Assembly: GCA_036787005.1 (NCBI GenBank)
Contig: DAIQQC010000001.1
Coordinates: forward strand, 12,879-68,377
DNA: 55,499 nt
Direction of reading: 5' to 3'
Source: Dehalococcoidales bacterium
GTDB lineage: Bacteria; Chloroflexota; Dehalococcoidia; Dehalococcoidales; RBG-16-60-22
The notes under the pieces were generated by a model. The model had not been told where the DNA came from. It ran no database searches and saw only the letters and a program-made list of their open reading frames with translations. The position numbers were made by a program, and so were the translations under genes. Positions 21,700-43,426 of this stretch are shown here, piece after piece. Every line of letters starts with the position of its first letter. Position 1 is the first letter of the stretch.

Positions 21700-22200
21700 C
21701 TACCTGGGGACAGGGAGCGGATTGCGGGGCTTTTCTTCAATTTGAGAGAGGTAGATATAGTTAGCCTTAGGATTAATACTTTTAGCCATATTCATACAGA
21801 TAAACGTCTCGCAGTTTTTTAAGCCCTTCAAGTTGCAAGTAATCTTCTGGACCAGTACGTGAATTTCCGCAGTAGAATGGCACCACAGGATAATCATGAC
21901 ATTGAATCCCCCCACAGTGACCGAAACAAACTTGCATTCCGGGATGGCACAGATAGTCTGAAGGGCGCCATTTAAATCCTTCTTGTCAATATCCAAACCG
22001 ATTATCGCCTGCACGGGGAAACCTGCCTTGAAAAACTCCGGGAGAGCAATAATATGAATCGCCCCGTCTTTGATAAGGTGACTCACTCTCCGCCTTATGG
22101 TTGAAGAATTAACGTTGAGCTTATTAGCCATTACCTTACTGGTAAGGCGCCCATTCTTTATCATTAATGAGATTAATTGACTATCCAGCTCATCTATCAT
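21700..22200 (-). CDS. Lrp/AsnC family transcriptional regulator (paralog)
   Basis: LDSQLISLMIKNGRLTSKVMANKLNVNSSTIRRRV. It shares the FNVMII(I/L)WCHSTAEI block with 19848-20288. Confidence 0.9.
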   Translation of the reverse strand: MIDELDSQLISLMIKNGRLTSKVMANKLNVNSSTIRRRVSHLIKDGAIHIIALPEFFKAGFPVQAIIGLDIDKKDLNGALQTICAIPECKFVSVTVGGFNVMIILWCHSTAEIHVLVQKITCNLKGLKNCETFICMNMAKSINPKANYIYLSQIEEKPRNPLPVPR

Positions 22201-22380: not shown

Positions 22381-22448
22381 CACATTATGTGCAATCTTGT
22401 TCCCATAATGTTCATTTTTATTGACACTGAAAACATAACTGTTATAAC
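22381..22448 (+). promoter_or_regulatory. operator CACATTATGTGCAAT, N25, TTGACA, N16, TATAAC promoter upstream of the peptide-type ABC operon
   Basis: The motif lies at 22381-22395, TTGACA at 22421-22426 and TATAAC at 22443-22448. The motif and its exact 25-nt spacing match the two promoters at 36.5-36.8 kb. Confidence 0.55.
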
Positions 22449-22654
22449 TTAAAGTAATTTCAATGGCTGGTAAGGCATCTTTGTATTTATAATCCTTTTT
22501 CAGACTCACAGGTAATGGTAAGAGCGAAAGTTTGAAAGGAGTTATATTATCCGGTGAAAGAACAAACAGCAGATAGAAAATCAGCGCGATACCGGTAAAA
22601 GTATTACACTAAAGATAATGTTAAAAGTAAATAAAAACTAAAGGAGGAGTAAAA

Positions 22655-24268
22655 ATGAAAAAACTATTTCTAATCTCGTTAATCTTGGTGATTGCAGTTG
22701 GTTTGATTCTTGGCAGCTGTGCCAAAGAAGCTGCGACGCCAACATCGCCATCCCTGACCCCCTCACCGACATCGAGTCCAACACCATCACCCACCGCTAA
22801 CCAGCCACAATATGGTAGCACGTGGGTCATGCTGTCAGATACAATCCCAGCCAATGTGAACCCCCCGGCCGATGGAGGCACTCTGTCGGCTAGGCATATG
22901 GTTCCCTGCCTAGAGCCATTACTCCGGCTGGACGTAGATGGAACTCTCAAGGGGCATCTGGCGGAATCCTTTGATATTGCCGCCGACGGTAAATCCGTCA
23001 CCTTCCATATACGCGAGGGTGTCCAGTTCCACGATGGTACCCCCTTAAATGCCGAAGCGGTCAAATACAACCTGGAAAAAACCGCGGCGTCAGACCTCTG
23101 GGGCGCTGGCGTTCTGAAAACGGCGGCATCTTACGACATCCTTGGAGAGTATACCCTCCGGGCGAATTTTAGCGCGTACAACTACAACTACATGACCGCG
23201 CTGGCTGGGCTTGTCGGCATGATTGCCTCACCAACAGCTCTACAGAAACCTGCTACAGCCGAAACCATATCCGAGCTCCACATGGTAGGCACCGGGCCTT
23301 TCCTCTACGATAGCTTCAAGGAGAATGACTATGTCAAATATACGAAGAACACGAATTACTGGCAACCCGGCAAGCCCTATCTTGACGCGATTATCATAAG
23401 GACGATCGCCGACCGCACCGTCGCGGCGATGTCCTTCATGGCGGGCGAGGTAGACGAGTTGGCGACAGGACTCCAGCTGGCTACGTCGAATATGCTGGAG
23501 GAACTAGGGTATACTATCAGTCAATACCCGCTGCGGTTCCATTTTGCCATGATGACGGACAGCGCGAACCCGAATTCGCCCTTTGCTGATAAAAGGGTAC
23601 GTGAAGCTCTTCAGTATGGCGTGGACAAGCAGACTCTGGTTGATGGTCTCGGCGGCGGCATCGAGAGAGGGTTTGTCGCTCTGTATCAGATGGCCGAACC
23701 AGGGGACCCGTGGTATTGCCCCGAACTACCCATCCGCGAATATGATCTGGTCAAAGCCAAGCAGCTGCTAACTGATGCTGGCTACCCCGATGGCTTCACG
23801 ACAGTACTTCATTCGGACACCTTTGCGGAGATGAACTTCTTAGAAGCGCTGCAAACCGAGCTTCAAAAGATGGGCATCATTGCCGAACTTGACATTGCGG
23901 ATATGGGGAGGGCATACTCCCTTTGGATGGGCGGTTGGGAAGGCCTGGAGCATCCGGGTTACCCGACCTATGATACCATCCCCGGTGTTAACTCCCGCTG
24001 GGGCGACCCGGCCTTTTGGCCTAGCATGTACGTGCCGGCCGGATGGTATGACATGTGGGCAGCGGTAATGGCCGAGGTTGACGATGCCAAGCGCGTAGAA
24101 CTGATGAAAGACATCGTCAGGCTTGACTATAATGAGTGTCTAACCTTTACCTGGAGAGGGGACGCGCCTTTCGGTGTTAACGACGGAACTTCTCATGGCT
24201 TCGTACTTCACGTCGGTGGTGCCATGGACATCTGGTGGCCGGAAGCCGTTTGGAAAGAAAAGGAATAA
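22655..24268 (+). CDS. ABC transporter substrate-binding lipoprotein, family 5 (peptide/nickel/opine type)
   Basis: Lipobox ILGSC followed by a Pro/Thr/Ser linker. 537-aa SBP_bac_5-like body. AAGGAGG RBS. Confidence 0.85.
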   Translation: MKKLFLISLILVIAVGLILGSCAKEAATPTSPSLTPSPTSSPTPSPTANQPQYGSTWVMLSDTIPANVNPPADGGTLSARHMVPCLEPLLRLDVDGTLKGHLAESFDIAADGKSVTFHIREGVQFHDGTPLNAEAVKYNLEKTAASDLWGAGVLKTAASYDILGEYTLRANFSAYNYNYMTALAGLVGMIASPTALQKPATAETISELHMVGTGPFLYDSFKENDYVKYTKNTNYWQPGKPYLDAIIIRTIADRTVAAMSFMAGEVDELATGLQLATSNMLEELGYTISQYPLRFHFAMMTDSANPNSPFADKRVREALQYGVDKQTLVDGLGGGIERGFVALYQMAEPGDPWYCPELPIREYDLVKAKQLLTDAGYPDGFTTVLHSDTFAEMNFLEALQTELQKMGIIAELDIADMGRAYSLWMGGWEGLEHPGYPTYDTIPGVNSRWGDPAFWPSMYVPAGWYDMWAAVMAEVDDAKRVELMKDIVRLDYNECLTFTWRGDAPFGVNDGTSHGFVLHVGGAMDIWWPEAVWKEKE

Positions 24269-24302
24269 ATAGAGATAGCAAAAGAAAAGGAATATATACA
24301 TA

Positions 24303-24340
24303 CCGGTGGAGGGGCTAAGTACCGGCTGGCTCCTCCACCG
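24303..24340 (+). other. stem-loop between the SBP and permease genes
   Basis: CCGGTGGAGG ... CCTCCACCG is a 9-10 bp GC-rich stem with no U-tract. This is the usual position of partial terminators or stabilisers in ABC operons. Confidence 0.35.
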
Positions 24341-24548
24341 AAGGGAAAGTTTGCAGGTTCGTTCGGATTATCGGCGGGAACGGGCTTTTAATAAAATATA
24401 AGAAATTTTACGGTTAATACAAGACTTGTTTTAGCAAACCAGCTAAAGCAAATCAGGGTTATTTCAGGTTGAGGAATGTAGGTCCCACGAGGGTTGACGA
24501 TACACTGCCTTTTTGAACATGCTGCTAATGACATGCTGGAGGCTTTGA

Positions 24549-25511
24549 ATGGCAGGGTACATGATTCGCCGGGTATTTATGGGTCTCATCGTCATCCTAA
24601 TAGTGACTATTCTGGTATTTCTGCTGATACGGCTTTTGCCGGGCGACCCGCTTTTAATGTATCTGACCCAGCAGCAATTTAGGGATACGCTTTACGACCC
24701 CGCCCAACTGGCACAATTGCAGGAAAGGTTCGGCCTGGACAAACCGCTGCCCATGCAATATATAGACTGGATAGCGGGTATGTTCCGCGGCGATTTTGGA
24801 GAATCAATTAGTCTTCAGGAGCCGGTATCGAAGCTGATTCTTGACCGTTTGCCGGTGACCATACACCTGAGCATCATCGGCGCTGTCTTCGCTACAGTTT
24901 TCGGCATAGGTATCGGGATAATCTGCGCTCTCAGGCGAGGCACATGGTTAGATAATGTGCTTACGTTCCTGGCCAATATCGGCATAACCATACCCAGCTT
25001 CTGGGCAGCCATTATACTCCTTTATATTTTTGGTCTCAAGCTGCACTGGGTGCCCATCGGGGGTTACACCTCACCATTCGAGGACTTCTGGTTAAACACC
25101 CGCCAGATAGTATTGCCTGTTTTTTGTTTGTCGCTCTTTGGCCTGGCGGCGAATGCGCGCCTGACGCGCTCCTGCATGCTCGATGTCATCGCCCAGGACT
25201 ACATTCGCACCGCCTGGGCTAAAGGTTTGAAAGAGCGGGTTATCGTCGTCAGGCATACGATTAAAAACGGCCTGATTCCGTTGATTGCTAATATGGGTTT
25301 CCTGGTCGCCGGCCTGTTTGGCGGCTCGGTGATTATCGAGACTTTGTTTAACATTAACGGCGTCGGCAGGTTACTGACAAGTGCCCTTCTCGGGCAGGAT
25401 TACATGATTGTGCAGGCCAGCACTCTGCTTTTCACCGCATTGATAACATTCTCTAACATCGTAGTGGACATTTCCTACGGCTGGCTTGACCCCAGGATAA
25501 GATATGATTAA
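24549..25511 (+). CDS. ABC transporter permease (DppB/OppB-like)
   Basis: 320-aa BPD_transp_1 protein with the N-terminal pattern (RRVFMGLIVILIVTILVFLLIRLLPGDP). Confidence 0.9.
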   Translation: MAGYMIRRVFMGLIVILIVTILVFLLIRLLPGDPLLMYLTQQQFRDTLYDPAQLAQLQERFGLDKPLPMQYIDWIAGMFRGDFGESISLQEPVSKLILDRLPVTIHLSIIGAVFATVFGIGIGIICALRRGTWLDNVLTFLANIGITIPSFWAAIILLYIFGLKLHWVPIGGYTSPFEDFWLNTRQIVLPVFCLSLFGLAANARLTRSCMLDVIAQDYIRTAWAKGLKERVIVVRHTIKNGLIPLIANMGFLVAGLFGGSVIIETLFNINGVGRLLTSALLGQDYMIVQASTLLFTALITFSNIVVDISYGWLDPRIRYD

Positions 25512-25522
25512 GGAGTTCTGGT

Positions 25523-26437
25523 ATGGCAGATAGTGCAGACTCTGGAACCCCTTTCGGTGACGATGTCGTATTGGAAGTGCCTTTAAAAAAGTACAGCGAA
25601 TTCAGGCGTACTGTCTCTGTATTCTTCGGGCGCCCGTTGCCCGTCGTTGGCCTGGTAATCATTGCTATCTTCATTATCATCATTATTTTCGGCCCCTGGA
25701 TTGCCCGCTATGACCCCCTTGAGACGGATGTCATGAATTCGTTAAGGCACCCCAGCCGCGAGCATCTCCTCGGTACCGACGAACTTGGCCGGGATACGTT
25801 AAGTCGATTGATTTATGGCGCGCGTACTTCGCTGTTCATCGGCATTGTGGTAATTAGTATATCTACAGCTATCGGTGTATTGCTGGGGCTTATTGCGGGG
25901 ACTACCAAGGGAGCAAAACACCATATAATCATGAGAATTACCGACGGACTGATGGCCTTCCCGAGTATCATACTGGCTCTGGTTGTCGCCGGATTGCTCG
26001 GCGGCGGCCTGCAGAATATCATTATAGCTCTGACCGTTGGTATGGTAGCACCAATTATCCGTATCACATGTGGGATGGCCCTTTCTATCAACGAAAATGA
26101 CTATGTTTTAGTCGCACGGGCTATTGGTACGAGTAAGATGCGCATAATGCTGAGTGAAATCTTACCCAACTGCTTTGCCCCAATACTGGTGATGATGACG
26201 ATGGGTATCGGGTCCACCATCTTGGCAGAGGCGGGTTTAAGCTTTCTGGGGGTAGGTATCACCCCACCGACACCGGTCTGGGGCCGCATGGTAAACGACG
26301 GCTATAAATTTCTTCTAACCAATCCCGAGTTGTCCATGGCGCCGGGGCTGGCAGTGATGCTGGTGGTCTTCGGTTTCAACATGATGGGGGATGGCCTTCG
26401 CGATGCACTTGATCCAAGGCTCAGAGGTGTAGTCTAG
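25523..26437 (+). CDS. ABC transporter permease (DppC/OppC-like)
   Basis: 304 aa. HLLGTDELGRDTLSRLIYGAR is the OppC N-terminal signature. Confidence 0.9.
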   Translation: MADSADSGTPFGDDVVLEVPLKKYSEFRRTVSVFFGRPLPVVGLVIIAIFIIIIIFGPWIARYDPLETDVMNSLRHPSREHLLGTDELGRDTLSRLIYGARTSLFIGIVVISISTAIGVLLGLIAGTTKGAKHHIIMRITDGLMAFPSIILALVVAGLLGGGLQNIIIALTVGMVAPIIRITCGMALSINENDYVLVARAIGTSKMRIMLSEILPNCFAPILVMMTMGIGSTILAEAGLSFLGVGITPPTPVWGRMVNDGYKFLLTNPELSMAPGLAVMLVVFGFNMMGDGLRDALDPRLRGVV

Positions 26438-26464
26438 GAAATCCGGATCAATAAGGAAAACGAT

Positions 26465-27457
26465 GTGAACACTCTGTTACAAGTTGAAAATCTCAAGACC
26501 TATTTCCGAACGTATCGGGGGATAGTCAAAGCGGTGGACAATGTTTCCTTTTACGTTAATGATAAAGAAATAATCGGGCTGGTGGGAGAAAGTGGCTGCG
26601 GCAAGTCCGTAACCATGCTCTCCGTGATGCAACTGATTCCCACACCGCCAGGCAAGATAGTCGGCGGGAAGGTTATCTTCGAGGGGCAGGACCTGCTCCA
26701 GTACAAAGCTAAAGGCGACCAGATGAGTTCCATCCGCGGCGGGAAGATAGCCATGGTATTCCAGGAGCCGATGACCTCGCTTAACCCGGTATTAACTATT
26801 TGCCGGCAGTTAACCGAGACGCTGGAACGCCATCTCAGCATGGACACCCATGCGGCGAGGATACGAGCCATCGAACTTCTGAAGCTGGTAGGCATCCCTG
26901 CGGCAGAAAACCGCATCGATGCCTATCCTCACCAGTTTAGCGGAGGCATGCGTCAGAGGGTGATGATTGCCATGGCGCTTTCCTGCAACCCCAGAATCAT
27001 TATCGCTGACGAGCCCACCACCGCCGTGGACGTCACTACACAAGCACAGTTGCTGGAACTTATGAAGGAAATGGTGGACCGATATAACACCTCACTCGTT
27101 ATTGTTACACATAATCTGGGCGTGGTCGCTCAATATGCTCAGAGAATTTATGTCATGTACGCCGGGCATATCGTGGAATCAGGCCTGTCTGATGATATAT
27201 TCGAAAATCCCCGCCACCCGTATACCATCTCCCTACTCAAATGCGTACCCCGGCTGGACGAAACAATAGAAAAAAGGAAACTGATACCTATCAAGGGTTT
27301 GCCCCCTAAGCTTATTGATATGCCGGAATACTGCCCCTTCTTGCCCCGATGCGCATACAAGATTGAAAAATGCAAGACGGGGCCGGTTTCTGTACTGCGA
27401 GAGGTGGGTAATCAGCATTATATATCTTGTTTCGTCGATAGCCAGGAGAAGATATGA
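26465..27457 (+). CDS. ABC transporter ATP-binding protein (DppD/OppD-like)
   Basis: Walker [17 protein letters not shown], and an oligopeptide C-terminal domain (HPYT...CPF..RC). Confidence 0.9.
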
Positions 27458-28440
27458 CAATAGAACAGAACGATTCCGTAGTGCAGGTAAAAAACTTAAA
27501 AATGTATTTTACGATTACCCGAGGGCTCTTACGCCGCAAGGTGGGTGAAATTAAAGCTGTGGACGATGTCAGTTTTATCATCAGGAAGAATGAGACCCTG
27601 GGGCTGGTGGGAGAAAGCGGCTGCGGCAAGACGACCGCAGGCCGCTGTATTTTACGGCTTTATACTCCTACCGCAGGTTCAATTATATTTCTCGGGCATG
27701 ATATATCTACTGTGCCGGAGCACCAAATAAGGCCATTACGTAGCCATATCGGTGTTATTTTTCAAGACCCTTATAGTTCTCTCAATCCCCGGCACTCAGC
27801 AGGCACGATTGCTGGCAGGCCTTTAATCATCCATCAAATGGTCAACAATAAAAGAGAATATGATGGTAGAGTTGCTGAGCTTTTTAAGCTGGTGGGACTT
27901 GACCCCAGCATGATGGACCGCGTTCCTCATGAATTCAGCGGCGGTCAGCGACAGCGCCTGAGCATAGCGCGCGCGCTTGCGTGCAGCCCTTCACTTGTTA
28001 TCTGTGACGAACCTATTTCCGCATTGGACGTATCGATTCAAGCCCAGATAATCAACCTACTTGAAGAGCTGCAGGAAAGACTAGGCTTGGCATACCTCTT
28101 TATCGCCCATGACCTGGCTGTCGTCCAGCATATCTCCGACCGTGTGGCGGTCATGTACCTCGGGCGTATCGTGGAGATATCTAATTCAAGGGAGCTTTAT
28201 AAAAACCCGCTGCATCCGTATACTAAAGCTTTGCTCTCGGCGATACCGATACCTAATCCGCGAATTGAGAGGACACGCCATCGTATTATACTTAAAGGCG
28301 AGGTCCCTAGTCCGGCCAATCCGCCGGGCGGTTGTCATTTCCATCCGCGTTGTGTTCTGGCAACATCCGAATGCGCTCAGGTAAACCCACCCCTTAGAGA
28401 TGTAGGCAACGGTCACGAGGTAGCCTGTACCAGGGTGTAA
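27454..28440 (+). CDS. ABC transporter ATP-binding protein (DppF/OppF-like)
   Basis: Walker [17 protein letters not shown] and a C-terminal HPYT...GCHFHPRC block. It overlaps the upstream gene by 4 nt. Confidence 0.9.
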
Positions 28441-28738
28441 TATTAAGAGCGAAAGGAGAAATTTCGTCGTCGAACGAAGGAGTGGTACTACTCGGAGGAT
28501 GGTTCATTATTGGCATAATAACCTCGGATAGGCGGGCTCTACCAGGGGAGAATCAGGTAAAGTCTGGTGTTAGCGCCCCTACCATTGGCAGTCTGATACA
28601 CAATTGGTTAAGTGGTATCCTGCCTGTCCATAATCCTTAATAAATCCGATTCGCGATGTTATTTCTACCCTGTTCTGTCCTATCCTGCTTACGGCGGTAT
28701 TACTGATATTAAAAAAATCTTGTTTAAAGGAGCAAACG

Positions 28739-30589
28739 ATGGCTGGAGGCTATATGGGAAGACTCCTGTGGGTAAATCTTTCCACGGGAGAAATAAAAGT
28801 TGAGCAACTTGATGAGAGTCTTTACCGGGATTTTATCGGTGGCTATGGCCTGGGCGCCAGAGTACTTTACAGTCGCCAGAAAGGCGGTGTGGATGCGCTG
28901 GGACCGGATAACATCCTGGGTCTGCTTACGGGGCCGCTTACCGGAACGCCGGCTATCAGCGGCACCAGGTATACAGTTGTGGGAAAGTCGCCGCTGACGG
29001 GGGGTTGGGGAGATGCTAACTCCGGAGGCCATTTCGGCCCCAAGCTCAAGTTCGCCGGCTATGACGGTGTGTTCTTTACCGGCATCGCGGATAAACCGGT
29101 CTACCTGCTTTTGAACAACGGTAAAGCCGAGATAAAAGATGCCAGGGAATATTGGGGTAAAGACACGTATTACACGGAGGACACCCTAAAGTCGGAATAT
29201 GGCAGCGCCGCTGAGGTTGCCTGTATTGGTCCGGCCGGAGAAAAGCTCTCCCGTGTCGCCTGCATTATCACCCGTAAAGGAGATGCCGCCGCACGCTCGG
29301 GGCTGGGAGCGGTGATGGGTTCGAAGAAACTGAAGGCGGTGGTTGCCATGGGCGACCAGAAAGTGCCCCTGGCCGATAGCGAAGCTGCCGACAGGCTGAG
29401 AAAAGAGCACTGGGAATATTTAAAGATGGGGATGGGTGGCGGAATGAACATGTACGGCACCTCCGGGCATGGAGATACATCAGCCCTGAGCGGTGATACC
29501 CCTATTAAAAACTGGGGAGGCATCGGGGTTATCGAACTGCCTGATGTCACCGGTCTCAACAAAGATAAGATGATTGCCAACCTGGACCACCGGACAGGCT
29601 GCTGGCAATGCCTGGCGGCCTGCAAGGCTGTCCTTAAAAACGGCATCCAGTATCCCTATCCAGCCGGGACTAAAAGACTGGAGTACGAAACTATTGGTGC
29701 TTTTGGGGCGAATTGTAAGAACACTAATGCCGAGTCCATAATTATGGCCAGTCATCTCTGCAACAGCTACGGCATGGATACCATATCCGCCGGAAGCATC
29801 ATCGCCTTCGCTCTGGAACTTTATGAGCACGGCATTATCACTAAAAAGGATACCGGTGGCATCAACCTCAAATGGGGCGATCCCGATGCCCTCGTCGCCA
29901 TGACGGAGAAGCTGGTAAAACGCGAAGCAATCGGAGATATCCTCGCCGAGGGAGTTAAAAACGCTGCTGAGAAAATCGGCAAAGGCGCCGAGCAATACGC
30001 CGTACATATCGGCGGGCAGGAGCTGGGCATGCACGACCCCAAGCTCGGCGGGCGCCCCTTTCAATTCCCCCGCCACCCGACGGGTACCGTGTACAAGATG
30101 GATGCCACACCGGGCCGCCATACCGGAGCATTCGGGCCTGACGGCTTTGAAAGGCACCTCAATAACTCCATGGGCACCTGTCTATTCTTGTTCCTTTCTC
30201 CTTTGCCTAAAGACCCAACAACACCCCTCCCCTTCGCCGCCAGCATGATGAAGGCCGTGACCGGCTGGGACCGTTCTCTGGATGAGTTGCTTGAAGCCGG
30301 TGAAAGGATTGGTACTATGCGGCATGTCTTTACCCTCCGCGAAGGCATCAATCCCCGGGAGCGCTTCGTGCATAACAGGATAATCGGGCGGCCACCGCAG
30401 AAAGATGGCCCGCTAGCCGGCGTATCGCTGGATATCGAGGAGGAAACTGCCTGGAACCTGGGTGCCCTGGACTGGGACCGGGTGACGACCAAACCCAGCC
30501 GGAAGAAACTGTTAAAACTAGGACTGGATGACGTGGCAGCAGAGCTCTGGCCGCCGCCAGTGGCTCCTGGGTTCGATCCGTCGAGATGA
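28739..30589 (+). CDS. aldehyde:ferredoxin oxidoreductase family (tungstopterin-type) enzyme
   Basis: 616 aa. The N-terminus GRLLWVNLSTGEIKVEQLDESLYRDFIGGYGLGARVLY and AOR_N/AOR_C blocks are typical of the AOR family. AGGAG RBS. Confidence 0.85.
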   Translation: MAGGYMGRLLWVNLSTGEIKVEQLDESLYRDFIGGYGLGARVLYSRQKGGVDALGPDNILGLLTGPLTGTPAISGTRYTVVGKSPLTGGWGDANSGGHFGPKLKFAGYDGVFFTGIADKPVYLLLNNGKAEIKDAREYWGKDTYYTEDTLKSEYGSAAEVACIGPAGEKLSRVACIITRKGDAAARSGLGAVMGSKKLKAVVAMGDQKVPLADSEAADRLRKEHWEYLKMGMGGGMNMYGTSGHGDTSALSGDTPIKNWGGIGVIELPDVTGLNKDKMIANLDHRTGCWQCLAACKAVLKNGIQYPYPAGTKRLEYETIGAFGANCKNTNAESIIMASHLCNSYGMDTISAGSIIAFALELYEHGIITKKDTGGINLKWGDPDALVAMTEKLVKREAIGDILAEGVKNAAEKIGKGAEQYAVHIGGQELGMHDPKLGGRPFQFPRHPTGTVYKMDATPGRHTGAFGPDGFERHLNNSMGTCLFLFLSPLPKDPTTPLPFAASMMKAVTGWDRSLDELLEAGERIGTMRHVFTLREGINPRERFVHNRIIGRPPQKDGPLAGVSLDIEEETAWNLGALDWDRVTTKPSRKKLLKLGLDDVAAELWPPPVAPGFDPSR

Positions 30590-30670
30590 TAAGAACCGAC
30601 TCGTAACATAAGCGGGTATCACCAGAGTTAAAAATACGGGGATATAGTCCATTGCCAAAAGGGGGTTAGC

Positions 30671-31594
30671 GTGCCAAAAGGGATAATTGTTTACCTCTCC
30701 TACACCGGAAACACCAGGCAGATTGCCCGGGCAATATACAGAGGTATGAATCCGCTCATGGACAGGTGCGGTATCGTCAAGCTGCGCCAGACCAACCCGG
30801 CGGACCTGGTGGGTTATGACCTGATAGGTATCGGCAGCCCGGTGCGGCTTGGCAAAATGCCCGTCGAGCTCAAGGATTTTATCGTAAAAATGGATTCGCT
30901 GCAAGGAACGCACTGCTTCGTTTTCAATACCCATGCGGCACTGCCGGTCGGTTTCATGAGAGAGTGCGTGACCGCTTTGAAAGATAAAGGACTGGTCGTT
31001 ATCGGTTTTAAAAACTGGTACAGCGCCGTATATCTCCCCTATGTTCCCAAGCCATATTTCACCGATGGTCATCCGGATGAAATCGACCTCAAAGAAGCCG
31101 AGCAATTCGGGCGGGAAATGGTGCTATACAGTCGCAAAATACATCAAGGCGAGAGCGACCTAATCCAGCGCCTGCCTGAAGGTAAAGAGTACGATAGGAT
31201 TTACGGCGCTCAAATGACGGGCGCCCTACCCGTGGATGTGATGAAAGCACGCGCCCAGGGATTCAGCATAAACATGGAAAAGTGCACCCGCTGCAACTAT
31301 TGCGTGGAACTCTGCCCCACGAACAGTATCGATTTCTCGGTAAACCCGCCAGTTTTTAAGAGATGCGACCAGTGCTGGATGTGCGAGCAGACCTGCCCGG
31401 AGGGCGCTATATCATTCAACTACCCGCCGCTCCTCAAATCCCACAACGTTATCGTGGAGCAGAGGTTTGTCCCGGCCCTCAAGCTCGCGGAAGAACTAGG
31501 CCGTTTCCGGCCGTTGGTGAAGCCTGAAGACATAGGGTGGGAGACACCTCTATTTATTACTAACAAGCCGCCGCGTTTTAAAATTATGCAATAA
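30671..31594 (+). CDS. flavodoxin-like domain fused to a 2x[4Fe-4S] ferredoxin domain (EFR1-type)
   Basis: IIVYLSYTGNTRQIA is a flavodoxin-type N-terminus. CTRCNYCVELCP and CDQCWMCEQTCP are the cluster motifs. GTG start follows AAGGGGG. Confidence 0.75.
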   Translation: MPKGIIVYLSYTGNTRQIARAIYRGMNPLMDRCGIVKLRQTNPADLVGYDLIGIGSPVRLGKMPVELKDFIVKMDSLQGTHCFVFNTHAALPVGFMRECVTALKDKGLVVIGFKNWYSAVYLPYVPKPYFTDGHPDEIDLKEAEQFGREMVLYSRKIHQGESDLIQRLPEGKEYDRIYGAQMTGALPVDVMKARAQGFSINMEKCTRCNYCVELCPTNSIDFSVNPPVFKRCDQCWMCEQTCPEGAISFNYPPLLKSHNVIVEQRFVPALKLAEELGRFRPLVKPEDIGWETPLFITNKPPRFKIMQ

Positions 31595-31669
31595 CCCGAG
31601 GGCTTTATTCACGTTGAACTAATGATATCGCCTTCAAAAAAATACCCAATAAGAGAAGGGAGATGTTAT

Positions 31670-32293
31670 ATGGCTAAAGAAAACTTGGAGCAGAAAGTTA
31701 AAGACCTGGAGGCAAAGCTTACGGCCGTAACCGATATACAGGAGATAGAAAAACTGCAGAGGATATACGGTTTTTACCTGGATAACCGTATGTGGGATGA
31801 CGTTGTGGATTTATTTTCCGATAATACCGAATCGCTGGAGATAAGCGATAGCGGCGTGTACCTGGGGAAAGCCGGGGTGAGGAGATTTTTCAAGGAATTC
31901 ATGGGGAGAGGCGGCTTGCCGCCCATGCCCGGAGCCCTAGGGACACACATGCAGCACCAGGGAGTAGTCAACCTAGACCCGGGGGGTGTTACCGCCAAGG
32001 GAAGATGGCAATGCGTCATCTGGCTGGCTACGTCCCTGAATAATAAGCTATCGGCAGGGCTGGGTCACGGCGTCTACGAGGATGAATACATTAAAGAAAA
32101 TAAAACATGGAAATTCAAAAAAATGCATTTCTACTTGGTGTTCCGGACCCTGCTGGATGAAGGATGGGTGAAGACACCGGTGGTGCTTTCCATGGCTAAG
32201 GGAAGCGCTGATTTACCCACTACCGTCTATAAACCTTACCCGTCCGGTTATGTTATCCCCTTCCACTTTAAGAACCCCGTAACCGGGAAGTAG
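31670..32293 (+). CDS. SnoaL-like / NTF2-family protein
   Basis: LEAKLTAVTDIQEIEKLQRIYGFYLDNRMWDDVVDLFSDN is the canonical SnoaL_4 opening. ATG at 31670 follows AGAAGGGAG. Confidence 0.7.
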   Translation: MAKENLEQKVKDLEAKLTAVTDIQEIEKLQRIYGFYLDNRMWDDVVDLFSDNTESLEISDSGVYLGKAGVRRFFKEFMGRGGLPPMPGALGTHMQHQGVVNLDPGGVTAKGRWQCVIWLATSLNNKLSAGLGHGVYEDEYIKENKTWKFKKMHFYLVFRTLLDEGWVKTPVVLSMAKGSADLPTTVYKPYPSGYVIPFHFKNPVTGK

Positions 32294-32307
32294 AGAGGAG
32301 AGAAAAA

Positions 32308-32757
32308 ATGACAGAGACCAAATATGGGAAGTATATTATTTCCAAACCTAAGATAGTAACACAGCTGGCGCATCACTCCAAGGAAGCCGCTTACCCCTGG
32401 AAGTTCCCGGCAGAAGTGTACCTGGATGGTGACATGGTGCCAGGATGCCCGGTATGGTTCGATATTAACTGGATTTTCGATACACACCTACCATCCGTTC
32501 CCGACTGGATTAAACCGCATAAACACGACCAGAATGAAATCCTTCTTTTTGTTGCCACAAACTCGGAAGGTAAACTGGGCGGAGAAATTGAGATATCAAT
32601 AGGCAAGGGAAAGGACAGGGAAAAGCACACTTTCAGCCACACAACCGCCGTTTTCATCCCGGCGGGAATAACACACTGCCCGATTGTCTATAAAAGCGTC
32701 GATAAGAAAAAACCGCAAATGATGATGGCTTTACTATTCAATCCGGATTACACTTAA
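32308..32757 (+). CDS. small cupin-domain protein, uncharacterised family (paralog 3 of 4)
   Basis: MTETKYGKYIISKPK...KPHKHDQNEILLFVATN...GGEIEISIG...VFIPAGITHCPIVY. It starts 14 nt after the SnoaL-like gene. Confidence 0.7.
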   Translation: MTETKYGKYIISKPKIVTQLAHHSKEAAYPWKFPAEVYLDGDMVPGCPVWFDINWIFDTHLPSVPDWIKPHKHDQNEILLFVATNSEGKLGGEIEISIGKGKDREKHTFSHTTAVFIPAGITHCPIVYKSVDKKKPQMMMALLFNPDYT

Positions 32758-32862
32758 CCGAGTTTCCTGGCTTAACCCGTGTGCCAAGTTTTAATAGCAG
32801 GGTACGAGGTTCTGTTTGCTTTTAGTTGTGCAAGAATACCTCGTAACCTCACTCCCTTTTGT

Positions 32863-32998
32863 AACCTCACCCCCTAACCTCCTCTCCAACCAGCTATATT
32901 GAACCAAGTCCATGAAGAACTGGTCGGAGTGGGGGAAACCAGAAGAGAGGGGGCTGCGCTCCCTCTAGCCGCGCACTCCCCTATTATAATGGGGAGAG
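32863..32998. repeat. REP/MITE-like palindromic intergenic repeat, copy 1
   Basis: AACCTCACCCCCTAACCTCCTCTCCAACCAG ... CTGGTCGGAGTGGGGG ... AGAAGAGAGGGGGCTGCGCTCCCTCT ... CTCCCCTATTATAATGGGGAG is a series of hairpins homologous to 53919-54099. Confidence 0.6.
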
Positions 32999-33138
32999 AG
33001 AAAATTTAACGAGACGGTTATATGCGGCGAGGGGTACGTTAGAATATCAGACAAATGCGAATAGCACCAGTTACGATAAGCAGATTTTAAAAAAGAGCCT
33101 GCTTGCCTATTCTAACTATAAAGTTATTCCTCCCGCCG

Positions 33139-33546
33139 TTAATCCGGGTAGGCGGCGATAGCGTCTACTTCAACCTTGAAATTTTTGGAGGCAAGCCCCT
33201 CTACGACAGCCAGGGTTCCGGTGCTGGGCTTTTCTTTTAAACCGGGCGCATATTTATAGCATTCATCATGGAACTTGCGAATCACCTTAACCGGGTCGGC
33301 GGCACCTTTTTTCATGTAAATGGTATGCTTTACCATGGCGCCGATATTTAAGCCAAGCTCTTCCAAGGCGGCGTTCATCTTACGCACCACAACCTCTATC
33401 TGGACAAAAATATCATCATCCACGTCACCACCCTTGCTGAAATCCATTGCCTCCGTGCCGGAAAGAAAGATAATTTTTCCTACCGATAAAGTCTTGCTGA
33501 TGTCCATCGACATCTCACCGTATAAAGTACGCTTAAAGTTATCCAT
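33139..33546 (-). CDS. RidA/YjgF/L-PSP family protein
   Basis: 135 aa with IFLSGT... and a C-terminal VEVDAIAA pattern typical of the family. Confidence 0.75.
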   Translation of the reverse strand: MDNFKRTLYGEMSMDISKTLSVGKIIFLSGTEAMDFSKGGDVDDDIFVQIEVVVRKMNAALEELGLNIGAMVKHTIYMKKGAADPVKVIRKFHDECYKYAPGLKEKPSTGTLAVVEGLASKNFKVEVDAIAAYPD

Positions 33547-33592
33547 GCTGTTCCTCCTTTATCTTAGTTATTCCGGGCTCCTGTATCTATTT

Positions 33593-34654
33593 TCATAGCT
33601 TGTATTCTTCAAATTCATACCGGCAAGGCTGTCCCCAGGCAACGTACATCACCTTATCCTCGGGGATCATAATTACCGAAGCCAGCGTCTCTCCCCGGGG
33701 CATCTGGGGGTTCATATGGGCACATATCGAGTTGGGGTAGTTATTATGGTCAGCCATGAACTCCATCATCAACTCAACGGTAAGGTCTCCATAGTGCCTT
33801 TCCATGAGTCTTTTTATCCGCTGCACCCGAATGTAGCTGTCACCTTCCATCAAACCAAAGGTGCCGTCACCCCTTTTCAGTCTTTCCGTGAGGTAATGGT
33901 TGGAGTGAACGAACATATCGGCTTCAGGCTGCAGCACGTTAAAGTCATCGGGCCTGGTCTCAATAGCGATAATGTCCCCTTCCGCGCTAGCGAAGGTATA
34001 ATTCAAGATACTACGCCCCGAGGCGCAAACGACCCCTAGGGCGTCGCCGATTCTCTTCTGCCGCATCGCCCGCAAGATGACACAGCAACAGGGCACGTTA
34101 AGGGCCTGGTCTTTAACCGGACTTAACATTACGTTCAGAGTCATTGCTACTCCCGCGGAGTTCAGCAACACCTCGCAGGCGCCGCCAAAGACAAGCGATA
34201 GCTGTTCCAGATTGTCATTGTACTTTTTCCTGACCAGATCTATCGACAAACCGGCATTGAGGTCGAAGTTCTGGCCGATGATTGTCTTACCGCCCCTTGT
34301 CACCTTACCCGTAGCGGCAAAAGACGTGCAAAGACAGGTTACACGCTGGTAATATATGCCTAACTCAAACCGGCACATCAGCATTAAAATCTCATCAAAC
34401 GGGACGCCGGCACCTTCCGCCTGTCCCTTCATCATCTCAATCAGCTCCGGGTCAAAACGCTCTACCGAGGGCAAATATTTACGGGCATTGGCCAAGATTT
34501 CCGCCTTGCTGACTTTCCGCACCATGCCGATGTTAACGATAAGCTCATTAATCGATTTGATAATATTATTCCGGCAAGCTACGCCGTACTGCTTCCCGAT
34601 TTCATAAGGAGTGCCACTGCACTCATGGACCGGTAACTTCCTGCTATCTTTCAT
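33593..34654 (-). CDS. C45-family peptidase / acyltransferase-like Ntn hydrolase (paralog)
   Basis: LCTSFAATG...GQNFD. It is collinear with 20517-21572 over its full length. ATG at 34654 is preferred over TTG at 34669. Confidence 0.75.
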   Translation of the reverse strand: MKDSRKLPVHECSGTPYEIGKQYGVACRNNIIKSINELIVNIGMVRKVSKAEILANARKYLPSVERFDPELIEMMKGQAEGAGVPFDEILMLMCRFELGIYYQRVTCLCTSFAATGKVTRGGKTIIGQNFDLNAGLSIDLVRKKYNDNLEQLSLVFGGACEVLLNSAGVAMTLNVMLSPVKDQALNVPCCCVILRAMRQKRIGDALGVVCASGRSILNYTFASAEGDIIAIETRPDDFNVLQPEADMFVHSNHYLTERLKRGDGTFGLMEGDSYIRVQRIKRLMERHYGDLTVELMMEFMADHNNYPNSICAHMNPQMPRGETLASVIMIPEDKVMYVAWGQPCRYEFEEYKL

Positions 34655-34696
34655 TTGCCTTCCCTTCAATGCCTGGCGTCTTGTTACTTGGCATCT

Positions 34697-36433
34697 TTAC
34701 ATGGCATCGTAGACAATTTTTCCGCCGGCAACAGTCATCAATGTCCGTATATCCGTTATTTTATGCGGCTCCACATTCAATATATCCTCGTCAAGAATAC
34801 AGAAATCAGCCACTTTACCGGGTTCTATAGAGCCTTTGACCTGTTCCATGTGGTCCTGCCAGGCTCCTTCTATGGTATACATCCGGATAGCCTGTTCGCG
34901 GCTAATACGCTGGCCAGAGTCAGCAGACAAGTCTCCTGGTATAGACTCCCTTAAAACGGCTGCCTGTATCCCCTGTTTCCAGTCCGGGATAGTCACAGGA
35001 GCATCAGAGCCGCCGGAAACATGTACGCCTGCCTCCATCAGTGTTTTTAAGGGCAGCAGCTTCGTGGCACGTTCTTTGCCAACGGAAAAAGCTATAGGAC
35101 CGGACATGACATTTGCCAGCACCGGCTGTACCGAAACACCGATATGATATTCGGCCATGCGTCTGGCGCTTTTCCCTGGAACGAAGTCACCATGAATGAT
35201 GTAATGGCGGAGGTCCTTTGGCTGCTCCTGCTCTGCCCTGACAAAACCATCAATACAGGCATCGATGGACCTATCGCCGGTAGCATGAACACCTATTTGA
35301 AAACCGAGTTTGTGGGCATGGGCGACAATATTCCTCAGCTCCTGGCAACGCTGCTCGTCCGTCTGCCCTGAAAAAATAAGAGCCCCGTTACCGCCACCCG
35401 TATAATCTTCATACATCCAGGCGGTTTTCATCGGCGGTATGCCGTCGGCAAAAAGCTTGATTCCGGCTATCCTCAGCCATTTATTGCCAAAACCAGTGTG
35501 TATCCCGATTTCCGGCAAACCCTTGAGCAGTTCCTCAGGATGGTAGCGGCCGTAGGGAGTAAAGAGCAGCAAGATGCTAACCCTTACCGTGAGTTTGCCC
35601 TCATTATTCAGGTCGTTATAGATGCTGATACATTCAGAATCCCATAGCCCCCCATAAACCAGAGCTCCAGCCGGGCCCAGACTCGGCTCGGTGATGCTGG
35701 TTATCCCCAGAGTATTAAGTTCACGCATGGCGGTGAGTAGCGCCTGTTTCTTTTGCTCCCTGGTCAAGAGAGGCACAACGCCGGTCACCAGATCGTCCGT
35801 GAGCATCCCCCGCACTAAACCGGTAAACTCGCCGGTGACCGGGTCTTTGACAACCTCACCACCACGGGCAAATGGGGTGTCTTTATGGATTCCTGCCAGG
35901 TTCCAGGCCCTGGTGTTAAATAGAACGATACGTTCGCCGCGAAAGGGAATAGCCCCGATGTAGACAGGGTTATCCGGAGATATCCGGTCTAAATCCCAGC
36001 GTGTGGGGTACCGGCCCGAGTTTTGCTGACACTCGTTAAGCAATACCGGGTCGAGTCCCATACCTCGTATCCACTCGCCGGGCTTGGCCGACTTTGCTTT
36101 CTCACCTATGGTATTAACAAGGTCGTCGATGGATTTTACCGCCGGGTAACTGACATCGAGCACTACCGGAGGTCTTGTACCACCAAAAAGAGAGGCATGT
36201 ATATGAGCATCGTTAATGCCCGGAAGCACGGTACTGCCTTGAAGGTCGATTTTTCGGGTCTTTTTGCCTGCCAGGGCTATAATCTCTTCATGGCTGCCAA
36301 CCGCCAGGATTATACCGTCTTTAACCGCTATGGCGCGGGCAATAGAAAAATTCTTATCTACCGTGACGACTTTTCCGTTGAAAACAATCAAATCCGCTAG
36401 CGCCGATTCTAGCGGCGACCTGTTTGACGCCAT
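34697..36433 (-). CDS. amidohydrolase-3 (YtcJ-like) metal-dependent hydrolase, cytoplasmic paralog
   Basis: DLIVFNGKVVTVD...PGINDAHIH...HATGD. ATG at 36433 follows GAGAGGTG. No signal peptide. Confidence 0.85.
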   Translation of the reverse strand: MASNRSPLESALADLIVFNGKVVTVDKNFSIARAIAVKDGIILAVGSHEEIIALAGKKTRKIDLQGSTVLPGINDAHIHASLFGGTRPPVVLDVSYPAVKSIDDLVNTIGEKAKSAKPGEWIRGMGLDPVLLNECQQNSGRYPTRWDLDRISPDNPVYIGAIPFRGERIVLFNTRAWNLAGIHKDTPFARGGEVVKDPVTGEFTGLVRGMLTDDLVTGVVPLLTREQKKQALLTAMRELNTLGITSITEPSLGPAGALVYGGLWDSECISIYNDLNNEGKLTVRVSILLLFTPYGRYHPEELLKGLPEIGIHTGFGNKWLRIAGIKLFADGIPPMKTAWMYEDYTGGGNGALIFSGQTDEQRCQELRNIVAHAHKLGFQIGVHATGDRSIDACIDGFVRAEQEQPKDLRHYIIHGDFVPGKSARRMAEYHIGVSVQPVLANVMSGPIAFSVGKERATKLLPLKTLMEAGVHVSGGSDAPVTIPDWKQGIQAAVLRESIPGDLSADSGQRISREQAIRMYTIEGAWQDHMEQVKGSIEPGKVADFCILDEDILNVEPHKITDIRTLMTVAGGKIVYDAM

Positions 36434-36508
36434 GAATATCACCTCTCAGGTTGGACCGAAAAGACCTGTTGTTTTCCAGAGATAACGCCCCATCAGATTC
36501 TAAAAATT

Positions 36509-36578
36509 AAATTACACTCACTCTCCGTTCATTGTCAATTGAAATAAGCATATTGGGGATAAAATTGCACATATTGTG
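36509..36578 (-). promoter_or_regulatory. operator CACAATATGTGCAATTT, N25, TTGACA, N18, TAATTT promoter for the 36433-start operon
   Basis: On the minus strand the motif is 36562-36578, TTGACA is 36533-36538 and the -10 is 36509-36514. Confidence 0.55.
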
Positions 36579-36699
36579 TTATTCAGGGAACGAGGCATAT
36601 ATTTCAGGTAACGCAAGTACGTATCACTATTCCACCCAAATTATTAGGATTTGCCTTCATTTACATGACCGGCGGACATACAAGTTCCATCGCCTGCTT

Positions 36700-36767
36700 C
36701 ACAATATGTGCAATTTGTCTAGCGTTACGCTCATTTTTCTTGACGGTAAGAAGACGATAATTATATT
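36700..36767 (+). promoter_or_regulatory. operator CACAATATGTGCAATTT, N25, TTGACG, N16, TATATT promoter for the 36842-start operon
   Basis: The motif at 36700-36716 is the exact reverse complement of 36562-36578. TTGACG is 36740-36745 and TATATT is 36762-36767. Confidence 0.55.
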
Positions 36768-36841: not shown

Positions 36842-38560
36842 ATGAAGATAGACATGCGCTATGCCGACACCGTTTTCTTGAATGGGAAAGTCATTACAGT
36901 AGACGGGGATTTTTCAATCTGCCAGGCGGTAGCCACCAAGGACGGTATCATCGTAGCCACGGGCAGAAATAACAACGTCAGGTCTCTGACAGGTAAAAAC
37001 ACGCGGGTTATCGACCTTAAAGGCAAGACGATGCTCCCCGGTATTAACGACTGCCACACACATGCGGCTTTATTCGGTGGTACGAGGCCGCCGCTGATGC
37101 TTGACCTCACCTATCCGACGGTAAAATCAATCAAAGACATCGTCAAGTTAGTTGCGGAAAGAGTTAAAACGACCCACCCCGGGGATTGGATAAGAGGGTT
37201 CGGCTGGGACGAAGGGTATTTAGAGGAATGCCTGCAGGACAGGACACACCACCCCACGCGATGGGATCTGGATGTCATATCCCCGGACAACCCTGTCTGC
37301 CTGGGCGACTTTTCCGTGCACTCCCTCTGGCTGAACAACAAGGCGCTGGAACTGGCGGGTATCACCACGGACACGCCAGTCCCGGTGGGCGGAGACATTG
37401 TTAAAGACCCCGAGACAGGCAAGGTCACGGGGATAATCAACGAGCTTGCCGCCCAGGGAATGGTCATGAAGGTCATACCACCGTGGACCAGGGCGCAGAA
37501 GAGATCTGCGATAGTTACCGCCATTAAAATTTTCAACGAGCTGGGCATTACCAGTATTACCGAGGGCGCGCTGGGGCCTGGAGGCGTGGGCTACCAGGGG
37601 GGACTGCTCGACTCAGAGTGCATCGGGGTCTATAACGACCTCTATGATGAAGGCAAGCTAGACATCCGCGTGAATATATTCTATCTTTTCGGCGAGTACG
37701 GAGCTTGCTCCTATAAAGATTTCCAACAGATTATCCCCGCACTGGGCATACACTCTTGCTTTGGCAACGATTGGATAAAGATCGGCGGAGTGAAGATATT
37801 CGCCGACGGCATCCCTCCGAACAAGACCGCCTGGGTAAGTGAGGAGTACGCTGGAGGAGGGCGGGGCAGCCTGGTGGTGCCGGGTAACACGGAGCAGGAA
37901 CACCGTGAAGAACTTGACAGGATGATAAAGCTGGCTCATCATCATAACTTCCAGGTAGGCGTCCACGCCATCGGTGACATGGCGATAGCCGCCACCGTCG
38001 ACAGCTTCATCGAAGCTGAAAAGAATGAACCCAAAGGTTTGAGGCACTACATTGTACATGCCGACTTCATCTCGCCCGAATACGCTGATAAGGCGGCCAA
38101 AAACAATATCGCCATCTGTGCCCAGCCCGGTATCCAGTGGACCCTTGCCGACGCTAGCTCCTATCTAGTCGGCATCGAGCGGGCAGCCCAGCAGTGGCCG
38201 TACAAGACCATTCTTGATGCCGGCGCGCGTCTCACCGGCAGCTCCGATACGCCCTGCATCGCCCCCCACTGGCTGCAGGGTATTCAGTCTGCCCTATTAA
38301 GGGAGTCTAAAGCCACCGGCAAGGTAAACAATCCTGCCCAACGCATCAGCCGGGAACAGGTTATCCGCATGTACACGATATCTGCTGCCTGGCAGGACCA
38401 CATGGAAAACCGGAAGGGCTCTATCGAACCGGGGAAGCTGGCCGACCTGTGCGTCTTGGGAGAGGATATTCTAGGCGTGGAGGCGCACAGCATAAAGGAC
38501 ATTCCTATAATGATGACGGTGGTCGGCGGGCAGGTAGTCTATGAAAGTGATGATTTTTAG
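36842..38560 (+). CDS. amidohydrolase-3 (YtcJ-like) metal-dependent hydrolase, cytoplasmic paralog
   Basis: DTVFLNGKVITVD...PGINDCHTH...HAIGD. It is collinear with 34697-36433 and 14106-15923. Confidence 0.85.
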   Translation: MKIDMRYADTVFLNGKVITVDGDFSICQAVATKDGIIVATGRNNNVRSLTGKNTRVIDLKGKTMLPGINDCHTHAALFGGTRPPLMLDLTYPTVKSIKDIVKLVAERVKTTHPGDWIRGFGWDEGYLEECLQDRTHHPTRWDLDVISPDNPVCLGDFSVHSLWLNNKALELAGITTDTPVPVGGDIVKDPETGKVTGIINELAAQGMVMKVIPPWTRAQKRSAIVTAIKIFNELGITSITEGALGPGGVGYQGGLLDSECIGVYNDLYDEGKLDIRVNIFYLFGEYGACSYKDFQQIIPALGIHSCFGNDWIKIGGVKIFADGIPPNKTAWVSEEYAGGGRGSLVVPGNTEQEHREELDRMIKLAHHHNFQVGVHAIGDMAIAATVDSFIEAEKNEPKGLRHYIVHADFISPEYADKAAKNNIAICAQPGIQWTLADASSYLVGIERAAQQWPYKTILDAGARLTGSSDTPCIAPHWLQGIQSALLRESKATGKVNNPAQRISREQVIRMYTISAAWQDHMENRKGSIEPGKLADLCVLGEDILGVEAHSIKDIPIMMTVVGGQVVYESDDF

Positions 38561-38638
38561 GTCGGTGAGAGCCGGAGAGGCAGGCTAGCTCATCTCGTAG
38601 CGGTTAGACAGGCTACAACAAATAAAAAAGGGGCGAAT

Positions 38639-41838: not shown

Positions 41839-43426
<1,588 letters not shown>

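Follow-up and report, generated by a model that had tools for sequence, protein, structure and literature searches.

Does one operator, read by one regulator, govern the three look-alike promoters of a catabolic gene island in an uncultured Dehalococcoidia-like bacterium? The island lies in a 55,499-nt stretch of DNA (positions 12,879 to 68,377 of contig DAIQQC010000001.1, assembly GCA_036787005.1), which was analysed as a whole and is called the window here. A first-pass annotation of the window had proposed that the promoters of an ABC importer operon and of two divergent amidohydrolase genes share an identical operator-N25-TTGAC architecture, and had named two Lrp/AsnC paralogues encoded in the island as candidate binders. 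From the comparison of sequences reported below, the best joint explanation, and quite probably the right one, is that the three sites are effector-responsive operators of a local Lrp/AsnC-type (feast/famine) regulator.

The putative operator motif and its predicted promoters

A pattern search of the window allowing up to two mismatches found CACAWTATGTGCAAT at three sites, at 22381 (+), 36578 (-) and 36700 (+). Dinucleotide-preserving shuffles of the window gave a mean of 0.15 matches, and three or more matches were obtained in none of 100 shuffles. The three copies, called box 1 of sites A, B and C, are the following.

22381..22395 (+): box 1 of site A, CACATTATGTGCAAT, the distal, high-information putative operator of the ABC-importer promoter
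36564..36578 (-): box 1 of site B, CACAATATGTGCAAT, ahead of the leftward amidohydrolase-C45-RidA operon
36700..36714 (+): box 1 of site C, CACAATATGTGCAAT, ahead of the rightward amidohydrolase operon

Direct reading confirmed both the 17-bp inverted pair and the match at 22381-22395 that had been reported before: CACAATATGTGCAATTT is found at 36700-36716 (+) and its exact reverse complement at 36562-36578, so that the two 17-nt sequences are 100% identical. Sites B and C stand back to back between the two amidohydrolase genes, and site A precedes the importer. The gene coordinates bear out the earlier statement that the motif points toward its gene in all three cases, namely the SBP_bac_5/ABC operon at 22655 and the Amidohydro_3 genes at 36442 (-) and 36842. 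The distance from ...GCAAT to TTGAC is exactly 25 nt at all three sites, as annotated, and a -10-like hexamer follows the TTGAC(A/G) hexamer after 16 nt at each of them. The centre of the site, previously estimated at 35-40 nt upstream of the -35 hexamer, had to be moved to ~33-35 nt upstream of the -35 start, that is ~-69 from the predicted start site. A search with three mismatches returned four further matches in the window, which is about the number expected by chance (2.4), and none of the four had the promoter geometry. There was no motif in the region ahead of the aldehyde:ferredoxin oxidoreductase (AFOR) gene (region 28441-28738) or between the 146-amino-acid (146-aa) Lrp gene and the AAT-like gene (20289-20516).

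The core promoters predicted downstream of the boxes are these.

22421..22448 (+): core promoter of the ABC operon (site A), TTGACA, 16 nt, (TGt)TATAAC, kept in relatives
36511..36538 (-): core promoter B, TTGACA, 16 nt, TGTAAT, read directly
36740..36767 (+): core promoter C, TTGACG, 16 nt, TATATT, called by a promoter scanner

The -35 hexamers are TTGACA at 22421-22426 for site A, TTGACA at 36538-36533 (-) for site B and TTGACG at 36740-36745 for site C, and the -10-like hexamers are TATAAC at 22443-22448 (preceded by TGt), TGTAAT at 36516-36511 (-) and TATATT at 36762-36767, respectively. The arrangement TTGAC(A/G)-16-(TATAAC/TGTAAT/TATATT), with start codons 136-274 nt downstream in the same orientation, fits sigma-70/sigma-A promoters, the start sites being predicted ones. 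A simple promoter scanner called site C alone; it skipped sites A and B because their -10 hexamers are without the T of position 6 or the A of position 2. A sigma-54 promoter, considered for ...TGTGCAAT, was ruled out by eye, the GG being absent at the -24 position. Sites A and C have an 'ATCG(T/C)C' element ahead of box 1, at unequal spacing (20 vs 17 nt), which is absent in the related loci L015 and L016 (loci other than the window are given by our own handles).

Conservation of the architecture and its link to the regulator gene

The window matches the metagenome-assembled genome (MAG) GCA_964593785.1 and several metagenome contigs of the Joint Genome Institute, and in the genome collection its nearest relative at species level bears the label 'uncultured Dehalococcoidaceae bacterium'. 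A megablast of the B/C region against E. coli genomes gave no match; the window is not enterobacterial DNA. A genome-wide scan for the motif, which the first-pass annotation had suggested, was run on 185,579 species genomes with the one exact pattern CACANTATGTGCAAT-N25-TTGAC. It matched on three contigs of one relative, corresponding to orthologues of A and of B/C and to an extra copy of promoter C, and at two isolated further places in unrelated phyla, Roizmanbacteria (L007) and Fibrobacter (L008). The latter two were taken as chance matches, about 4 being expected (19 fixed bases, 596 Gb), and have no Lrp-clade gene nearby. On the third contig of the relative MAG (L010:4180-4400), promoter C and the start of an amidohydrolase gene are joined to an A-like upstream flank, ..ATCGTCTTATCGCA-CACAATATG.., next to protein-kinase-like fragments and with the amidohydrolase frame apparently disrupted; the join reflects either recombination at the operator or a chimeric assembly.

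Orthologous loci were gathered without regard to the motif by looking for proteins homologous to the transporter binding protein, and further loci were gathered by scanning metagenome contigs with an Lrp protein alignment. Site A was unchanged in L014, whose binding protein is 78% identical to that of the window. In L015 (69%), CACATTGTGTGCGAA-N25-TTGACA precedes the amidohydrolase operon and CACGTTATGTGCAAA-N25-TTGACA the binding protein gene; in L016 (64%), AACAATATGTGCAGT-N25-TTGACA is found before RidA, CACAAAATGTGCAAG-N25-TTGACA before the binding protein and a weaker ..AACGTGCAAA-N25-TTGACA before AFOR. L022, found through its Lrp protein, has two sites, which flank the regulator gene.

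The window, L015, L016 and L022 together supplied ten non-identical promoters, with the consensus CACA.TaTGTGCAA. / ttt..t..CA.aatG.TCATTT..A / TTGACA / N16 / t.tAa, in which GTGC, C+23, G+29 and TTGAC are invariant and the intervening bases essentially random. Among 10 close relatives, the footprint of site A is near-invariant from ~15 nt 5' of box 1 to just past the -10; its flanks and the 5' leader drift, and L027 has replaced the upstream flank. At the amidohydrolase promoters B and C the box is identical at 17/17 positions and the spacers match at only 10/23. In the window and in the loci gathered blind to the motif (L012-L046), all matches that differ from the motif at no more than two positions are intergenic with TTGAC at N25, and none lies in coding DNA. 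The identity of the box, the footprint and the diverged loci therefore point to selection on the box itself, and not to recent duplication or a dispersed repeat. The common architecture of the three promoters was thus borne out and could be extended, the diverged loci keeping motif-N25-TTGACA before orthologous genes while the surrounding bases are randomised. The possibility raised in the first-pass annotation, that the motif belongs to a dispersed repeat unrelated to promoters, found no backing, every copy in the fetched DNA having the promoter geometry.

The ten promoters also share a second element between box 1 and the -35, with the consensus CA.aatG.TCATTT. This second, weaker box, 21 bp downstream of the first, is absent from the first-pass annotation. 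Its copies in the window are listed here.

22402..22416 (+): box 2 of site A, CCCATAATGTTCATT, next to the -35, a direct but weaker repeat of box 1 at a distance of 21 bp in the 3' direction
36543..36557 (-): box 2 of site B, CCCAATATGCTTATT, from the consensus and the matrix score
36721..36735 (+): box 2 of site C, AGCGTTACGCTCATT, from the consensus and the matrix score

A leave-one-out matrix built on box 1 scored +1.4 bits at offset +21 and about -13 at other offsets, the next best being -6.7 at offset -21; each promoter therefore appears to combine a strong box in the distal position with a degenerate copy in direct orientation, two helical turns further downstream. Box 2 ends ~4-7 nt before the -35. 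If the -10 is taken to span -12 to -7, the predicted box centres would be near -69 and -48. The pattern is that of several helically phased sites, with box 2 at +21 bp and a weak signal at -21, and in the divergent RidA/AFOR promoters of L016 back-to-back boxes lie ~20-21 bp apart. A third in-phase box over the core promoter was not supported by the same matrix, the score at offset +42 being -9.95.

The distribution of the motif follows that of one regulator gene. Counting as Lrp clade members the proteins of at least 55% identity, the motif was present in every fetched locus that has a clade member and sufficient flank, and in none of the 22 loci without a clade member. L015 and L016 have both the gene for the 146-aa Lrp protein and the motif. 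L012, L013 and L017, whose transporter proteins are closer to those of the window (76-82%), lack the motif and, over 15-21 kb, any Lrp gene; they encode a GerE-type response regulator and a HisKA_3 kinase instead, and have their own 21-bp element, TTCAAGATACYAATAGYCTCC, followed by aYCTTTYGGAC, at three promoters per locus.

L012:3765-3785, 9197-9217, 9485-9505: copies of TTCAAGATACYAATAGYCTCC
L013:2758-2778, 8284-8304, 8513-8533: copies of TTCAAGATACYAATAGYCTCC
L017:483-503, 6081-6101, 6387-6407: copies of TTCAAGATACYAATAGYCTCC

Two of the copies stand as an inverted pair in the region that separates the amidohydrolase from the transporter operon, and the third lies between the TRAP (DctP) and response-regulator genes. 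These sister loci look like a case of regulator displacement over orthologous operons (Lrp/AsnC vs a NarL-type two-component system). No motif was found in the loci of Lrp homologues at 51-53% identity (L025, L026) or at 36% and below (L030-L046). At L025:6290-6385 and L026:7900-8000, where the Lrp homologues have the segment ASTVRRR and stand in unrelated gene contexts, the Lrp promoter regions have another repeated element, ATATTCTACC, twice, and a box-2-like GAATATGCTATTT stretch. Across the loci compared, the motif is co-inherited with the regulator gene and not with the target genes.

The Lrp/AsnC proteins, the sign of control and the rival explanations

The two Lrp/AsnC proteins of the window are encoded as follows.

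19848..20288 (-): 146-aa Lrp/AsnC regulator (Pfam), prime candidate binder
21700..22200 (-): 166-aa Lrp/AsnC paralogue, divergent from the ABC promoter, 56% identical to the 146-aa protein

Both have an N-terminal AsnC-type helix-turn-helix and a C-terminal AsnC_trans_reg (RAM) domain (Pfam). Their relatives in the PDB include FL11, LrpA, LrpC and AsnC, and the closest solved structures, which are distant matches (E ~1e-17), are PH0140/DARP and the related 7fby protein. Against NCBIfam all scores were far below the cut-offs, and neither protein is the equivalog of a named member. Orthologues of the 146-aa protein in L014, L015, L016 and L022 are 69-86% identical. We take this protein as the prime candidate binder because an orthologue occurs in every motif-bearing lineage; the 166-aa paralogue is found only in the nearer relatives of the window. 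The 146-aa gene in L016 and the 166-aa gene in the window are each divergent from a motif-bearing promoter, and a divergent regulator/target promoter is the classical layout of local Lrp/AsnC regulators. The 166-aa gene has a promoter-like site of its own, TTGACA-17-TATATT, at 22313-22285. The predicted promoter of the 146-aa gene, TTGACT-17-TAGGAT (window 20345-20400, -), is followed a few bases on by AAACTGCAATGG, which contains a TGCAA half-site; CTGCAAT occurs also after the predicted promoter of the orthologue in L021 and L016, and not clearly in L015. This TGCAA may be an autoregulatory half-site.

The recognition segment SSTIRRR is invariant in both paralogues and in all clade members, and when they are aligned with FL11, positions 36, 37 and 39 are occupied by Ser, Thr and Arg in all of them. 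Lrp-family sites have been described in the form abcdeWWWe'd'c'b'a', with a contact code (Table 4) in which residue 37 goes with base a, residue 36 with base b and Arg39 with a G opposite base c (Yokoyama et al., 2009; PMC2715240). In the same work Ss-LrpB, which has Ser36/Thr37/Arg39, prefers T-G-C-A-A, its site being TTGCAA[AAT/ATT]TTGCAA (PMC2715240). The published code applied to the island proteins predicts T(a)-G(b)-C(c), and T-G-C sits in the invariant GTGC core of the motif, TGC(A) being invariant in box 1; moreover, 8 of the 10 promoters have two inverted half-sites around an AT-rich 3-bp centre, CACA-(ATA/TTA/TTG/AAA)-TGTG. We regard the match of the recognition residues as supportive of an Lrp/AsnC binder, not as decisive. 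Together with the co-occurrence of motif and clade, it gives support to the earlier suggestion that the Lrp/AsnC paralogues are candidate binders.

In the mechanism that we propose, each promoter has a strong distal box, CACAWTATGTGCAA, with a predicted centre near -69, and a weaker box, CA..atG.TCATTT, that has its predicted centre near -48 and abuts the TTGACA -35. Two dimers of one oligomer of the 146-aa protein would occupy both boxes co-operatively on one face of the DNA, and the 166-aa paralogue, having the same recognition segment, may also be a member of it. A small molecule, probably one that resembles an amino acid and arises from the imported amide or peptide, would act as the effector of binding, and the oligomer would co-ordinately switch three operons, that of the ABC importer and AFOR module and the two divergent amidohydrolase operons. 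A further step, which we hold to be rather unlikely, is that the paralogues, with an identical reading segment and diverged ligand domains, form mixed oligomers that integrate two signals, and that sister lineages swapped this control layer. In that case two signals would switch on an anaerobic amide/peptide-to-aldehyde pathway in uncultured Dehalococcoidia, comprising the ABC importer, the paired amidohydrolases, the C45 hydrolase, RidA and the tungsten AFOR, and the two-component sister loci would be a clean natural regulator displacement, with an operator of their own at three promoters and the regulatory logic preserved.

As to the sign of control, we tentatively lean, by a little, toward effector-dependent activation. 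The boxes are upstream of the core promoter without overlapping it, the spacers are of 16 nt, and 8 of the 10 -10 hexamers are defective at position 2 (A) or position 6 (T), e.g. TATAAC, TGTAAT and TATACC. Defective -10 hexamers combined with 16-nt spacers suggest weak promoters in need of help. Besides, among bacterial local Lrp/AsnC regulators that have been characterised and whose genes diverge from catabolic operons (BkdR, PutR, DadR, AsnC at asnA), most are activators.

Several observations weigh against a regulated operator of this kind, or against parts of the proposal. The number of independent lineages is small, ~four of the Lrp type vs three of the two-component type, and the window, L011, L014, L018-L024, L027 and L029 are close relatives of one another; an unlinked lineage-specific factor could give the same co-occurrence. 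The -35 is the consensus TTGACA in 9 of the 10 promoters, which is atypical of activator-dependent promoters. In the relative MAG, the orthologue of site B (L009:3012-3026) is CACAATATGTGCGAT, with GCAAT changed to GCGAT, and site C, ~120 bp away, is unchanged; because of this A to G change in the CAAT tail, the last bases of the 15-mer appear to tolerate change. With the conserved CAA 3' of the CACA-WWW-TGTG palindrome the site is asymmetric, and it can be read in another register as well. The contact code fits only registers centred at motif position 6 or 15, and the best palindrome (CACA-N3-TGTG, centre at position 5) disobeys it; the register of the site with respect to the code is ambiguous because TGCA is self-complementary. 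Residues 24, 34 and 35 (Ser, Asp, Ser) of the two Lrp proteins, furthermore, are outside the published code table.

The alternative that survives best keeps the operator and the Lrp/AsnC binder and reverses the sign: the protein would be a repressor or anti-inducer whose oligomer wraps or bends the DNA and occludes the -35 until the effector releases it. This is possible, and we find it clearly the less likely sign. The consensus -35 and the closeness of box 2, only ~4-7 nt away, would suit it, as would the fact that the closest solved relatives are archaeal and include a proposed repressor. For PH0140/DARP, compared there with FL11, a model has been put forward in which the ligand-bound protein represses a transporter/racemase cluster and a D-amino acid releases it (PMC13628549). 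In the island, however, the boxes are clear of the -35, the -10 and the predicted start, there is no third in-phase box, and the weak promoters suggested by the -10 hexamers and spacers argue in the other direction. The mostly activating role of the bacterial relatives in the divergent layout stands against repression too.

Another explanation, which we judge improbable, accepts a real operator and assigns it to a different factor, either an unlinked lineage-specific regulator, the GntR protein of L015 or the CGNR zinc-finger protein (41056-41703), the Lrp genes being bystanders. The co-occurrence of motif and Lrp clade is indeed confounded by the shared ancestry of few lineages, and a strong distal site (-65/-70) with a weaker one adjacent to the -35 is also LysR- or AraC-like. 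However, no LysR or AraC gene is present in any of the loci, L015 alone has GntR, and the CGNR protein was seen in no DNA but the window and near-identical contigs with the same genes. The 146-aa Lrp gene is the sole regulator gene common to all motif-bearing lineages, and the recognition residues of its product predict the invariant TGC of the motif. Binding by the Lrp/AsnC protein is thus favoured over this explanation.

A functionless 15-mer, left by mere common descent of duplicated promoters, by a dispersed repeat or by a mobile-element remnant, is very improbable: the amidohydrolase paralogues are head to head, so that an inverted duplication could have copied the promoter, and the join of an A-like flank to promoter C in L010 hints at recombination or misassembly at the motif, but the paralogues are only 51% identical with unalignable flanks and have nevertheless kept the box at 17/17 and at a fixed distance from the -35, the box is found ahead of genes unrelated to one another (binding protein, RidA, AFOR) in diverged genomes, the matches with up to two mismatches all being intergenic and with TTGAC at N25, and the strict genome scan added only loci of the relative and chance-level matches. 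Three copies in 55 kb, all with promoter geometry, also do not make a dispersed repeat resembling repetitive extragenic palindromes or miniature inverted-repeat transposable elements.

Genes of the island and comparison with known systems

The operons predicted downstream of the three sites are given below.

22655..32757 (+): operon 1, SBP_bac_5 binding protein of an Opp-type ABC importer, two permeases, two ATPases and a tungsten-type AFOR
within 22655..32757 (+): further genes of operon 1, a flavodoxin/4Fe-4S protein, a SnoaL-like protein and a hypothetical protein
33139..36442 (-): operon 2, Amidohydro_3, a C45 (AAT-like) autoproteolytic hydrolase and a RidA-family protein
36842..39538 (+): operon 3, an Amidohydro_3 paralogue, a TIGR04076-family protein and a hypothetical protein

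The gene order of operon 1 is kept in L012, L014 and L017. Its internal gaps of 280 and 298 nt have no motif, and because of these gaps the distal genes are only presumably co-transcribed. The orthologue of operon 2 in L015 has the motif ahead of it, and the two Amidohydro_3 paralogues of operons 2 and 3 are those of 51% identity. Among the regulon proteins, only the C45 proenzyme and TIGR04076 models of NCBIfam passed their cut-offs, and no equivalog model did. The leader of the ABC operon, ~200 nt long (window 22456-22654), is conserved in close relatives and wholly absent in L021 and L024, where a ribosome-binding site lies within ~40 nt of the promoter. A structured leader or riboswitch at this operon was not supported, with no Rfam match (E<=1) and a folding z-score of +0.5, no better than shuffles.

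Likely related enzymes adjoin the 146-aa Lrp gene (window 14106-21572), without the motif at their promoters; the arrangement of phosphotriesterase, cupin and Lrp genes is kept also in L014.

14106-15998: a third Amidohydro_3, near the 146-aa Lrp gene
18117-19196: phosphotriesterase-family protein, near the 146-aa Lrp gene
19247-19678: cupin, near the 146-aa Lrp gene
20517-21572: a second C45/AAT-like protein, near the 146-aa Lrp gene

A large serine recombinase gene (41839-43395) is situated just outside the island, and after it, in the stretch that ends the window (41839-55499 with the recombinase gene), come several genes for URO-D-like methyltransferases and one for a pterin-binding protein, in DNA with a G+C content of 56-59% vs ~50%. 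The recombinase and the region of higher G+C may mark the island boundary.

If the proposal holds, a catabolic island of an uncultured sediment Dehalococcoidia-like lineage would gain a defined operator, candidate regulators and a regulon of ~16 genes in three operons; we know of no experimental work on regulation in this lineage. It would also join unusual enzymes into one unit (two large Amidohydro_3 proteins, C45, RidA, a tungsten-type AFOR and a peptide/opine-type ABC importer), which would help in guessing the substrate, and would provide both a usable bacterial test case for the residue-to-base recognition code of the Lrp family and an example of regulator displacement over orthologous operons. 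Existing concepts are left unchallenged by such a regulon, and the points of modest interest are the 21-bp two-box geometry, the paralogues with one reading head, the replacement of the control layer and the linkage of the enzymes.

The two boxes on one helical face resemble the strong distal and weaker -35 sites of LysR-type promoters and the 21-bp direct repeats of AraC/XylS promoters; unlike those, the island has no T-N11-A box, and the LysR and AraC genes are missing, as said, from all loci. PH0140/DARP of Pyrococcus horikoshii is, like the island proteins, a full-length Lrp protein in a narrow local cluster with a transporter and an amino-acid-converting enzyme (PMC13628549). It differs in the archaeal promoter machinery, in the proposed repression with L-Ile and in a DNA site that is not base-defined, and the sequence match is distant.

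The archaeal sites of Ss-LrpB and FL11 also have two half-sites around a 3-bp AT-rich centre (PMC2715240). Ss-LrpB shares Ser36/Thr37/Arg39 with the island proteins, and the core T-G-C-A equals its half-site. The island site, in contrast, is asymmetric, the promoter-proximal GTGCAA being invariant and the distal half being CACA and not the symmetric TGCAC, and the residues at positions 24, 34 and 35 differ from every entry of the published table (PMC2715240).

Further counterparts are the local Lrp/AsnC systems of bacteria, BkdR-bkd, PutR-putA, DadR-dadAX and AsnC-asnA. As in the island, a small regulator with HTH_AsnC and AsnC_trans_reg domains adjoins or diverges from its targets, and the operator is intergenic, upstream of the target promoter, with several phased sites. 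The island departs from them in its two paralogues with an identical recognition segment, in the single operator type serving three promoters, including an inverted pair, in having no equivalog among the named families, and in its uncultured, Dehalococcoidia-like host. Taken together, the sequence comparisons make it well supported that the island is a local Lrp/AsnC regulon of the classical kind, found in an uncultured lineage and with a newly defined operator.

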